From: Vibrio vulnificus CMCP6
Lineage (GTDB): Bacteria; Pseudomonadota; Gammaproteobacteria; Enterobacterales; Vibrionaceae
Reading direction: 5' to 3'
Assembly (NCBI RefSeq): GCF_000039765.1
Contig: NC_004460.2
Location: 1,710,001 to 1,742,000 of the forward strand
Length of the DNA stretch: 32,000 nucleotides
Shown: piece by piece, positions 6,121 to 8,073 of the stretch
Numbering within the stretch: the stretch's first letter is position 1
How the letters are laid out: every line of letters begins with the position of its first letter
The notes under the pieces: generated by a model
Told to the model about the DNA's origin: nothing
Databases searched by the model: none
What the model saw: the letters and a program-made list of their open reading frames with translations, nothing else
Position numbers and translations under genes: made by a program

Positions 6121-8073
6121 TTACCATGTTTTGTCTTTATTATCAGGCGCCGGTTTTTGCTGTGCTTGCAACAACATTTGTGCTTTAAGCAGATAAGCAG
6201 GATCGCGTGCGTTTTCAACGGATTCCAGTTTTTTAAAGTCTGGATCGTCTGCGTTTTTCGGCGCAGGTTGTTGGGCTTCTACGCTTTTGGGCTCAGTCTC
6301 TCTTTCTTGCGCGGGTTTATCGCTCGGCTTAACTTGCTCTTCACCCTGTTCGGATGGTTTTTTCTGTCGTTGAGCATTGCCTTGTTCACTGTTTTCTTGA
6401 GACTTTTCTTTTGCCTTATTTGGCGCATTTTCGCGATTTTCTGATTGACTCTGATTATCGCGATTGGAAGACTTTTGTTGCTGTTGCTGTTGCTGTTGCT
6501 GTTGCTGTTGCTGTTGCTGTTGCTGTTGCTGTTGCTGTTGCTGTTGCTGTTGCTGTTGCTGTTGCTGTTGCTGTTGCTGTTGCTGTTGCTGTTGCTGTTG
6601 CTGTTGCTGTTGCTGTTGCTGTTGCTGTTGCTGTTGCTGTTGCTGTTGCTGTTGCTGTTGCTGTTGCTGTTGCTGTTGCTGTTGCTGTTGCTGTTGCTGT
6701 TGCTGTTGCTGTTGCTGTTGCTGTTGCTGTTGCTGTTGCTGTTTTGCTTTTTCTACTATTTCGCGATTGGTTTGTGCTTGTTTGAGGTTTGGGTTTTTCG
6801 CAAGCGCCTTTTGGTAAGCCTCTAGTGCTTTATCATACTGGCCGTTTTGCGCTAATGCGTTACCCAAGTTGTACAGTGATTCTGCACTGTCTGATTGCGC
6901 AAACAGTGTTGCCGCTTGTTCATATTCTCCTGCTTTATATGCGGCGCTTCCTTTCCATTGCGGGTTGGAAAACTGCTCAGCTGCCGCTTTATATTGCCCT
7001 TGGTCGAACAACGACTTGCCCTGTTGATCGGCGGTAAGAAACGCAGAAGCATGAGCGCGAGGCATCTGAGTTAGGGGTAAGCTCAGTACCAATGCCATCC
7101 AAACAAAGCCTCGTCGGAATAAGCCTAATCCTGCCAGTAACAAGAGTGGTAACAACCAGTAACCCCCATTTTCCCTGACCTCGCTTTGCTGTGTATTGTT
7201 GGCTTTTGCTTGATGCATTTCGGAATTGGCCTGCGTTGCTGCGGCAATTTCTACAACGTCTTGGTTACTAAATTGAATGGGGGCGAAGTAGCCTCCCGTT
7301 TTCTGCGCCAGTGCTGCCATGTTGTTGAAATCAGACTTAGCAACCACTACTTGCCCTGTTGAACTTGTCAGCAACGAGCCATTCGGCAGAGGAATTGGCG
7401 AGCCGTTTGGTGTACCAATCCCAAGAATGGACACTCGAATCGCGGAGTTGGCAACAAGCTTCAATGCTGCCTGCAGTTCTTGATCATCAATATCATCACT
7501 TATAACGATGATATCGCCTTTCGCCGCTCCTGCTTTTTCAAGTTGTGCTTTGGCCAACACCAAGGCGCTTGTGAGGCGTGAACCTTGATAGGGCATGATG
7601 TCAGGCGATAGGTTCTGGATGAGATTCGCTAACGTCTGGCTGTCACTGGTCAGTGGGCTAAGTAAATAGGCATCGCCTGCATAAGCAATTAAGGCGGTAT
7701 TGCCTTCTTTCCATTGCGGAAGTAGGTCGAGCGCCTTATATCTCGCCTGCTGTAAACGGCTTGGCGCAATGTCTTGCGCATACATGGATTGCGACATATC
7801 CATGACCAAAACCCGATTTTGATGGCTGTTGAAGCTGGGGCGCGTGGTGTGTTGCCAGCTTGGTGATGCCAGCGCAAGGATGGCGATAACCCAAGCGAGC
7901 AACCACAGTAGTATTGACCTGGCGTTTTTTGCACCTTTTGTTGGTGTTTGGCTAAGATGGGCTGCCACTGGGCCTTGCGATGCTTGCCTTTTAAAGCGCC
8001 AAAACAACCAAGCGACAGGTAGGACAATCAAACCGAATAGCCAGTTGGGCTTTAGAAAAATCAGTTCAGACAT
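6121..8073 (-). CDS. BatB-like membrane VWA protein fused to TPR repeats, an 89-residue polyglutamine tract and a charged disordered tail
   Basis: VWA MIDAS motif DMSQSM, with two N-terminal TM helices and further TM helices after the VWA domain. TPR-like repeats (YKAAAEQF..AAYKAGEYEQAATLF..LYNLGNALAQNGQYDKALEAYQKALAKNP) precede the Q89 tract and a K/E/Q/S-rich tail. ATG at 8073 follows GGAG (acGGAGaaatcATG) and overlaps the batA-like stop by 8 nt. The ORF-track TTG at 8091 is less likely. Confidence 0.75.
   Translation of the reverse strand: MSELIFLKPNWLFGLIVLPVAWLFWRFKRQASQGPVAAHLSQTPTKGAKNARSILLWLLAWVIAILALASPSWQHTTRPSFNSHQNRVLVMDMSQSMYAQDIAPSRLQQARYKALDLLPQWKEGNTALIAYAGDAYLLSPLTSDSQTLANLIQNLSPDIMPYQGSRLTSALVLAKAQLEKAGAAKGDIIVISDDIDDQELQAALKLVANSAIRVSILGIGTPNGSPIPLPNGSLLTSSTGQVVVAKSDFNNMAALAQKTGGYFAPIQFSNQDVVEIAAATQANSEMHQAKANNTQQSEVRENGGYWLLPLLLLAGLGLFRRGFVWMALVLSLPLTQMPRAHASAFLTADQQGKSLFDQGQYKAAAEQFSNPQWKGSAAYKAGEYEQAATLFAQSDSAESLYNLGNALAQNGQYDKALEAYQKALAKNPNLKQAQTNREIVEKAKQQQQQQQQQQQQQQQQQQQQQQQQQQQQQQQQQQQQQQQQQQQQQQQQQQQQQQQQQQQQQQQQQQQQQQQQQQQQQQQQQQQQQQQQQKSSNRDNQSQSENRENAPNKAKEKSQENSEQGNAQRQKKPSEQGEEQVKPSDKPAQERETEPKSVEAQQPAPKNADDPDFKKLESVENARDPAYLLKAQMLLQAQQKPAPDNKDKTW
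6475..6741 (-). repeat. Perfect hexanucleotide tandem repeat: (CAGCAA)n on the coding strand, (TTGCTG)n on the + strand, 267 nt, about 44.5 units, encoding 89 consecutive Gln
   Basis: Read directly. Lines 6481-6720 are four identical 60-nt rows of CTGTTG units, extended by 6475-6480 and 6721-6741. There is no interruption, and the tract is in frame with the BatB-like ORF (..VEKAK-Q89-KSSNRDN..). Confidence 0.98.

Follow-up and report, generated by a model that had tools for sequence, protein, structure and literature searches.

A 44-unit CAGCAA repeat in a Bat-type VWA-TPR protein of Vibrio vulnificus, a probable length-variable polyglutamine linker orthologous to a cholera typing locus

Within a 32-kb window of the Vibrio vulnificus CMCP6 genome (the whole stretch of DNA analysed here; 32,000 nucleotides (nt), positions 1,710,001 to 1,742,000 of contig NC_004460.2), the minus strand carries at 6475..6741 a (CAGCAA)44 + CAA tract, identified by codon count and repeat finding. 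It encodes 89 consecutive glutamine residues (Gln451-Gln539, Q89) of a membrane protein with VWA and TPR domains of the Bacteroides aerotolerance (Bat) type. We consider it likely that the tract is a hypermutable variable-number tandem repeat (VNTR) which always stays in frame and lies in a length-tolerant, disordered and probably periplasmic linker between the TPR domain and a conserved C-terminal two-helix motif. The tract is already known: in orthologues it is a VNTR employed for strain typing of cholera isolates, and the glutamine repeats were reported in 2005-2006.

A preliminary description of the window, made from the DNA alone, had pointed out the 89 consecutive glutamines and the perfect 267-nt repeat encoding them, and both hold on codon count and on analysis with Tandem Repeats Finder. 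The host open reading frame (ORF) contains a single glutamine run, residues 451-539, composed of 45 CAA and 44 CAG codons whose alternation is broken solely at the final pair, CAA-CAA. Tandem Repeats Finder reports the repeat at 6476-6743 with a period of 6, 44.7 copies, 100% matches, no indels and a score of 536, while the second-ranked repeat of the window scores 44. The tract is hence a perfect head-to-tail array of a short unit, as is characteristic of VNTRs, and chance origin of a 264-nt perfect hexamer array is impossible. On either side it is bordered by conserved sequences, …AATCGCGAAATAGTAGAAAAAGCAAAA and AAGTCTTCCAATCGCGATAATCAG…. Beyond the tract, the host ORF uses 37 CAA and 16 CAG codons; since the CAG:CAA ratio is 16:37 elsewhere in the ORF, and since the 1:1 ratio is kept in a lineage with 63% guanine-cytosine (GC) content described below, the codon ratio of the tract is a property of the amplified unit and not of codon usage. 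Three ORFs on the plus strand across the tract (poly-Leu, poly-Cys and poly-Ala-Val) were rejected as mere consequences of the repeat; it is the minus-strand frame that is conserved between species.

Folding of single-stranded DNA separates this repeat from trinucleotide expansions of the CAG/CTG type, which are characterised by a pure CAG run and slipped hairpins. Per 120 nt, the minimum free energy is -8.1 kcal/mol for (CAGCAA)20 and -5.8 kcal/mol for (TTGCTG)20, with merely trivial hairpins of two base pairs, compared to -24.2 kcal/mol for pure CAG and -43.8 kcal/mol for pure CTG of equal length. CAG and CAA alternate in the tract and folding is weak, so that it does not belong to this class. 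The weak folding indicates that the mixed-codon unit lacks the hairpin route to big deletions and expansions, while misalignment by one unit remains available.

In V. cholerae, the locus VCA0171 used in multiple-locus VNTR analysis (MLVA) has the motif gctgtt (PMC6905556), and GCTGTT is CAGCAA on the opposite strand, rotated. The published primer VCA0171-F (PMC4703203) matches with one mismatch 250 nt upstream of the CAGCAA start in the V. cholerae orthologue, and gene spacing around VCA0172 and VCA0176 agrees with the window. Judged by motif, primer site and gene spacing, the V. vulnificus tract is the orthologue of the VNTR locus VCA0171. The two share the orthologous gene, the position after the TPR domain, the hexamer unit and in-frame length polymorphism; they differ in size, with 7-26 units reported for V. 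cholerae versus 44 in the V. vulnificus tract. The V. parahaemolyticus MLVA primers VP2-07 (PMC4462150) border the tract in V. campbellii, where the VCA0171-type hexamer is replaced by a 9-nt unit (CAACAGCAG), and VP2-07 very probably marks the same tract, as far as primer positions can tell. On the protein level, ProtRepeatsDB (2006) listed tandem glutamine repeats C-terminal to the TPR region for V. parahaemolyticus and for the V. vulnificus strains CMCP6 and YJ016, and noted that the repeats are shorter in V. cholerae and interspersed in Shewanella (PMC1538635), and COPASAAR (2005) found bacterial homorepeats of more than 20 residues confined to 'certain Vibrio species' and Lactobacillus plantarum (PMC1199582).

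Length change in steps of the repeat unit is directly visible among orthologues. The V. fluvialis proteins of 623, 625, 627 and 629 amino acids (aa) carry Q5, Q7, Q9 and Q11, respectively, so that protein length equals 618 plus the number of glutamines. The near-clonal isolates THAF191d, THAF191c and THAF64 from one aquarium tank carry Q46, Q44 and Q44 with 100% identical flanks (2829/2829 and 1200/1200 nt), the tract occupying 2830-2967 or 2830-2961, i.e. a difference of exactly one hexamer. The expectation in the preliminary description that slippage would proceed in frame and in 6-nt steps is thereby borne out in V. fluvialis, the THAF isolates and VCA0171. For VCA0171, 19 alleles were described among 66 seventh-pandemic V. 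cholerae isolates (PMC3438101) and three alleles were seen within weeks in the Haiti outbreak (PMC3377427); the locus is among the two most variable V. cholerae markers. Hexamer VNTRs of V. parahaemolyticus mutate at ~1e-4 per generation, with a linear rise with copy number (PMC3265528), and extrapolation from that species to 44 units suggests roughly 6e-4 changes per generation. Copy-number polymorphism was thus seen in V. cholerae, in the THAF isolates and in V. fluvialis, and all available V. vulnificus assemblies break at the tract.

These breaks are systematic. The best protein matches to the host protein are three V. vulnificus clusters with 421 members, annotated as 'partial' (449 or 443 aa; 96-98% identity), all of which stop at …NREIVEKA, one residue ahead of the first glutamine, and six sampled V. 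vulnificus contigs terminate exactly at the NREIVEKA codon before the tract. The remaining part of the gene is represented by separate V. vulnificus entries of 117-121 aa, likewise annotated as 'partial', which start with zero to two glutamines. Searches for V. vulnificus proteins with the tract cut to QQ, or with the tail alone, returned solely such tract-truncated proteins or C-terminal fragments, and the V. vulnificus junction between tract and tail gave 0 matches in a scan of metagenomes. The breaks in the sampled drafts indicate that short-read assemblies cannot bridge the repeat, and they imply a long tract in practically every strain sampled. Proteins cut at this position are also present in V. 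cholerae (a 378-member cluster), V. campbellii, V. rotiferianus, V. natriegens, V. splendidus, V. fluvialis, V. mimicus, V. metoecus and V. navarrensis. The tract accounts for a break that recurs systematically in hundreds of V. vulnificus drafts and for the resulting 'partial' VWA proteins and 'hypothetical' tail proteins. The caution in the preliminary description about the assembled length was justified, given that more than 400 partial proteins and the six sampled contigs end at this point, and the exact copy number from any short-read assembly is not trustworthy. Two further proteins labelled V. vulnificus, P0004 and P0005, have 62% identity to the window protein and are also cut at …VEKA; judged by their sequences, they may belong to a divergent allele or lineage, or their species label may be wrong.

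Most Vibrio species have a pure glutamine run at the identical site, immediately behind the last TPR helix. The tract is resolved in several complete second chromosomes of Vibrio (1.3-2.1 Mb), which PLSDB lists among the plasmids. In V. campbellii LJC015 (NZ_CP050465.1, 2854-3228 of the extracted locus) it reaches Q125, encoded by (CAACAGCAG)41 + CAACAA. Alternating CAG and CAA codons make up Q46 in Vibrio sp. THAF191d, Q31 in Vibrio sp. THAF190c, Q22 in Vibrio sp. HDW18 and Q15 in V. aquimaris, and CAGCAA repeats encode Q33 in V. intestinalis and Q24 in V. metoecus. Many further species have Q5-Q11 at the same aligned position in the protein database. This database appears to contain no glutamine run above 11 and has many of exactly 11, which we read as a database filter and not as biology, and proteins with long polyglutamine (polyQ) are systematically missed in it. 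The PLSDB records NZ_CP050465.1, NZ_CP045339.1, NZ_CP045351.1, NZ_CP046066.1 and others come with almost no gene table and leave the Bat gene unannotated. The rarity of such tracts in bacteria, as asserted in the preliminary description, is correct in general (COPASAAR 2005, PMC1199582), but it does not apply to this gene, in which polyQ is found genus-wide and the Q125 of V. campbellii, built at the same site from another repeat unit, exceeds the Q89 of V. vulnificus.

Outside the genus, the non-Vibrio gammaproteobacterial metagenome contig WBZP01002734.1 (L088 3710-3793; 63% GC) carries Q35, encoded by (CAACAG)17 + CAG, at the same site of a Bat-like VWA-TPR gene with 35% identity to the window protein, which suggests a parallel expansion in this distant lineage. 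The underlying metagenome scan for (CAGCAA)14 or longer yielded at least 120 contigs with up to 71 glutamine codons, 50 tracts lying at contig ends and GC contents ranging from 24% to 75%; many of these contigs may be eukaryotic, only WBZP01002734.1 showed a Bat-like gene, and the scan has no bearing on bacterial rarity. In Shewanella, Pseudoalteromonas, Thiomargarita, Methylococcales and Verrucomicrobiota, the same position is occupied by a low-complexity linker of mixed Q/D/E/S/N/K composition, ~50-240 aa long (most >100 aa) and sometimes repetitive, followed by the conserved C-terminal motif. Individual linkers are composed of (QQQQQQD)n in V. agarivorans, ~60 QQN/QQD/QQG units in Shewanella sp. 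GXUN23E and (KQEQ)n in Thiomargarita, and V. intestinalis has a second array, (CAGTCTCAG)n, beyond a scaffold N-gap at ~5600-5720 of the extracted locus. Over these taxa, linker repeat units measure 6, 9, 18 or 21 nt, each a multiple of three, a pattern consistent with selection to hold the C-terminal motif in frame. The proposal that the tract acts as a contingency element in an on/off sense has to be discarded: all observed units are multiples of three, and the tract lies inside the ORF, ahead of a motif that is conserved in the same frame.

An AlphaFold2 (AF2) model based on an alignment of 60 orthologues (residue figures in the numbering of a 650-aa protein) extends the last TPR helix (431-471) ~26 residues into the polyQ with falling confidence, assigns a predicted local distance difference test (pLDDT) score below 50 to residues 471-607 and reaches a pLDDT of up to 92 in two C-terminal helices. 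This high score hints at packing of the C-terminal helices against something, possibly the TPR domain. In the same alignment, the terminal W650 and L628 are invariant, and L616, D624 and L635 are at least 90% conserved. The last ~44 aa (…DDPDFKK…KTW) of the V. vulnificus fragments are identical apart from single substitutions in P0151 and P0155, and the linker ahead of them varies by substitutions and indels. Conservation of the C-terminal motif in frame behind the tract is good, though indirect, evidence for translation of the tract. With regard to topology, six K/R in the first loop and the FRRG turn between later membrane helices lead, by the positive-inside rule, to a predicted periplasmic orientation of both the VWA domain and the TPR-polyQ-tail part. 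According to this prediction, TPR domain, spacer and C-terminal motif most likely reside on the periplasmic side of the inner membrane, in agreement with the experimental mapping of the BatA-like VWA domain of Borrelia BB0173 to the periplasm (PMC5700661). The Vibrio linker measures 143 ± 19 aa (range 85-201 aa), a spread which rules out a periplasmic 'ruler' of constant length. In species with long glutamine runs, the non-Q remainder is shorter (rho -0.75, n=7, p=0.05), and compensation of linker length is partial at most.

Taken as a mechanism, CAGCAA units would be gained and lost by simple replication slippage within a sequence that codes for part of an intrinsically disordered, Q-rich spacer, the exact length and sequence of which would be of little weight. 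This spacer would join the TPR domain to the C-terminal two-helix motif. In Vibrio, its first part would have been homogenised to pure polyQ and would drift between Q5 and Q125, and long tracts would survive because mixed CAG/CAA coding removes the hairpin potential that destabilises pure CAG/CTG. We infer the role as spacer or tether, the near-neutrality of length and the rate of instability in V. vulnificus from the comparisons above. In-frame VNTRs of surface or envelope proteins, the proline-rich spacer of TonB, domain II of TolA and the Lpp ruler offer a mechanistic analogy to the tract, not homology. As in spacers of the TonB, TolA and Lpp type, a variable low-complexity segment joins an anchor or domain to a distal interaction motif and changes length in frame, whereas TonB- and TolA-type spacers are Pro- or Ala/Lys-rich and the V. 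vulnificus tract is pure Gln.

Several points weigh against the length-tolerant linker. The total linker length is not constant and grows with the number of glutamines (rho 0.89, n=7). That the whole genus, and independently the 63% GC lineage, keeps a pure tract at one site could also reflect positive selection for polyQ instead of mere tolerance. The C-terminal helices could, as judged from the model, dock back on the TPR domain and turn the tract into a loop instead of a tether, and the periplasmic topology is predicted only. In addition, no V. vulnificus locus was found among the 26 loci from the genome-contig scan, and the exact 656-aa protein is absent from the protein database, in which no Q run exceeds 11.

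The host ORF (6121..8091, minus strand) encodes 656 aa from a TTG start and, by ORF analysis, Pfam, NCBIfam and Foldseek, is a fusion of the BatB-BatC type comprising VWA, TPR, polyQ and tail. Its designation in the preliminary description as a membrane VWA-TPR protein is correct according to Pfam, hydropathy, AF2, NCBIfam and Foldseek. Public annotations use either TTG at 8091 (the 449-aa partial proteins) or ATG at 8073 (the 443-aa partial proteins), the latter giving 650 aa for the full protein; both starts overlap the 3' end of the upstream BatA-like gene (8066-8091). All protein segments named below lie on the minus strand. An N-terminal pair of transmembrane helices (aa ~10-28 and 60-78; 7858..8064) was assigned by hydropathy, AF2 helices and weak matches to BatA_N and 'two_anch'; the anchor profiles stay below their cut-offs (PF07584 with 19.6 bits, cut-off 25.9; TIGR02226 with 16.7, cut-off 23.05), the two hydrophobic helices are clear, and the loop between them contains 6 K/R and no D/E. 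The VWA core (Pfam VWA_2, 1.1e-16; aa 94-199; 7495..7812) was delimited by Pfam, conserved columns and the structural match to BatB, and carries the DxSxS signature of the metal ion-dependent adhesion site of BatB-type VWA domains as D98-M-S100-Q-S102, conserved among orthologues. A second transmembrane hairpin (aa ~310-341; 7069..7164; hydropathy and AF2) contains the short FRRG turn and is followed by an A-H-A motif (7048..7056) reminiscent of the A-x-A of signal peptidase sites, the second alanine of which (A342) is invariant in 60 orthologues. From its sequence, the fourth transmembrane helix with A-H-A/S resembles a retained BatC signal peptide and may be cleaved, in which case the TPR-polyQ-tail part might be freed as a soluble periplasmic protein.

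The TPR domain (aa ~354-450; 6742..7032; TPR_1/2/16, pLDDT >90) continues with its last helix straight into the glutamine tract and is a module of the BatC type, with matches to TPR_1/TPR_2 at ~1e-12 and to BatC (NF047507) at 9e-12, the latter under its curated cut-off. Behind the tract follow the non-Q part of the linker (6259..6474), which is rich in K/E/Q/S/N/P and predicted to be disordered (pLDDT <50; indels among V. vulnificus strains), and the conserved C-terminal motif (..DPDFKKLESVENARDPAYLLKAQMLLQAQQK....W; 6124..6258), defined by the alignment of 60 orthologues and AF2 as two helices with an invariant terminal Trp. The tail as a whole (residues 540-656) is K/E/Q/S/N/P-rich with ~37% charged residues, and neither Pfam nor NCBIfam assigned a family to these C-terminal 117 aa. 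Similarity of the N-terminal half to BatB is evident from NCBIfam (2e-25), the PDB entries 3IBS and 4JDU (E ~1e-22) and Foldseek (TM-score 0.87-0.90; 0.87 for 3IBS); the NCBIfam matches to BatB and BatC score below the curated cut-offs, which are Leptospira-specific. A BatB-like N-terminal half combined with a BatC-like TPR part identifies the host protein as a BatB-BatC fusion.

All genes of the surrounding operon lie on the minus strand. Directly downstream of the host gene follows a gene of the BatD family (4479..6110; PF13584 BatD and DUF7939). Upstream lie, assigned by Pfam, genes for a BatA-like VWA protein (8066-9037), a DUF4381 protein (9030-9500) and a DUF58 protein (9506-10423) as well as, at the operon head, a MoxR AAA+ ATPase (10427-11431). 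The neighbourhood typical of Bat loci, i.e. MoxR, DUF58, BatA-like VWA and BatD, is present in the window and in the orthologous loci, in which RefSeq annotates the neighbour gene as 'BatD family protein'. The window thus resembles the Bacteroides Bat operon in its composition of MoxR, DUF58, DUF4381, BatA, BatB/C and BatD, with a VWA domain in BatB and TPR in BatC, but differs from it in that BatB and BatC are fused to one polypeptide in V. vulnificus and in that polyQ is outside the family definition. The function of Bat proteins is not established (PMC3557215). On the plus strand around the operon we observed genes for a GAF-GGDEF diguanylate cyclase (2275-4395), a Cache-HAMP chemoreceptor (11658-13595), oriented divergently to the MoxR gene, and a pair of neighbouring VpsT-like regulators of the LuxR type (14010-14684 and 14879-15538), a neighbourhood of the biofilm or cyclic di-GMP type.

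Other explanations were weighed against the length-tolerant linker. It is extremely unlikely that the tract or its stated length results from mis-assembly of a shorter or interrupted repeat. Draft assemblies do fail to bridge the tract, MLVA counts from whole-genome sequences are censored if the k-mer is shorter than the tract (PMC6905556) and the sequencing platform behind the window is not known; against this, similar long tracts (Q15-Q125) occur in several independently assembled complete replicons, many laboratories have determined the size of the V. cholerae tract by PCR and Sanger sequencing, and contigs break at both tract edges in hundreds of V. vulnificus strains, which points to a real repeat longer than the assembly k-mer, so that uncertainty is confined to the exact copy number of 44. 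Somewhat less remote, yet still very unlikely, is a prion-like, amyloid or condensate-forming domain, in which Q89 would drive self-assembly as a polar zipper or coiled coil and thereby cluster Bat complexes or act as an epigenetic switch. Aggregation of eukaryotic polyQ proteins sets in at a threshold of ~35-40 Q. The tract is well beyond this length, and AF2 runs the capping helix of the TPR domain into it, as for helix-flanked polyQ. In huntingtin, ataxins and the androgen receptor, too, a long, length-polymorphic Gln run above the aggregation threshold follows a helix able to propagate into it; the V. vulnificus tract differs from these by its CAGCAA hexamer without hairpin potential in place of pure CAG, by single-unit slippage and by its predicted periplasmic, membrane-tethered location with charged flanks. 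Aggregation was already raised by ProtRepeatsDB in 2006 (PMC1538635). However, export of the segment to the periplasm is predicted, it is tethered to the membrane, and the tail behind it is highly charged. Orthologues with Q5 or with mixed acidic linkers are functional, and self-assembly can therefore not be the conserved role.

More weight, although we still regard it as rather unlikely, is due to the possibility that tract length is selected and adaptively sets the reach or valency of a Bat component, with 6-nt slippage providing heritable cell-to-cell variation of the envelope or of aggregation. The tract is pure, sits at the same site genus-wide and arose in parallel in a distant lineage, and a high mutation rate is expected from its copy number. 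Deletion of vca0175 abolishes quorum-sensing-controlled aggregation in V. cholerae (PMC6351105), and from gene order and spacing we infer that vca0175 is the first gene of this operon, which encodes the MoxR ATPase and is oriented divergently to the chemoreceptor gene VCA0176; the neighbourhood in the window with its cyclic di-GMP and VpsT-like regulators also fits. On the other hand, neither VCA0171 nor the length of its tract has been connected with any phenotype, the locus serves as a neutral marker in MLVA studies, species with anything from Q5 to Q125 retain the gene, and the function of Bat itself is not settled (PMC3557215). A more specific version, in which the tract is a fast-mutating heritable dial on a periplasmic Bat subunit whose range from Q5 to Q125 sets the reach or multivalency of the C-terminal motif and so tunes an envelope-linked behaviour, for instance vca0175-dependent aggregation under quorum-sensing control, with bet-hedging heterogeneity in clonal Vibrio populations as the outcome, appears clearly improbable to us; if true, it would provide a natural bacterial system with a physiological read-out of polyQ length.

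For V. vulnificus, the locus should serve as a VNTR marker, as it does in V. cholerae. What remains of interest is why the genus retains pure glutamine runs, the longest of 125 residues, in a linker that is probably periplasmic. If length matters, Vibrio would offer a tractable bacterial model of polyQ length effects; if it does not, the tract would be a clean case of a disordered, length-tolerant spacer invaded by a microsatellite.

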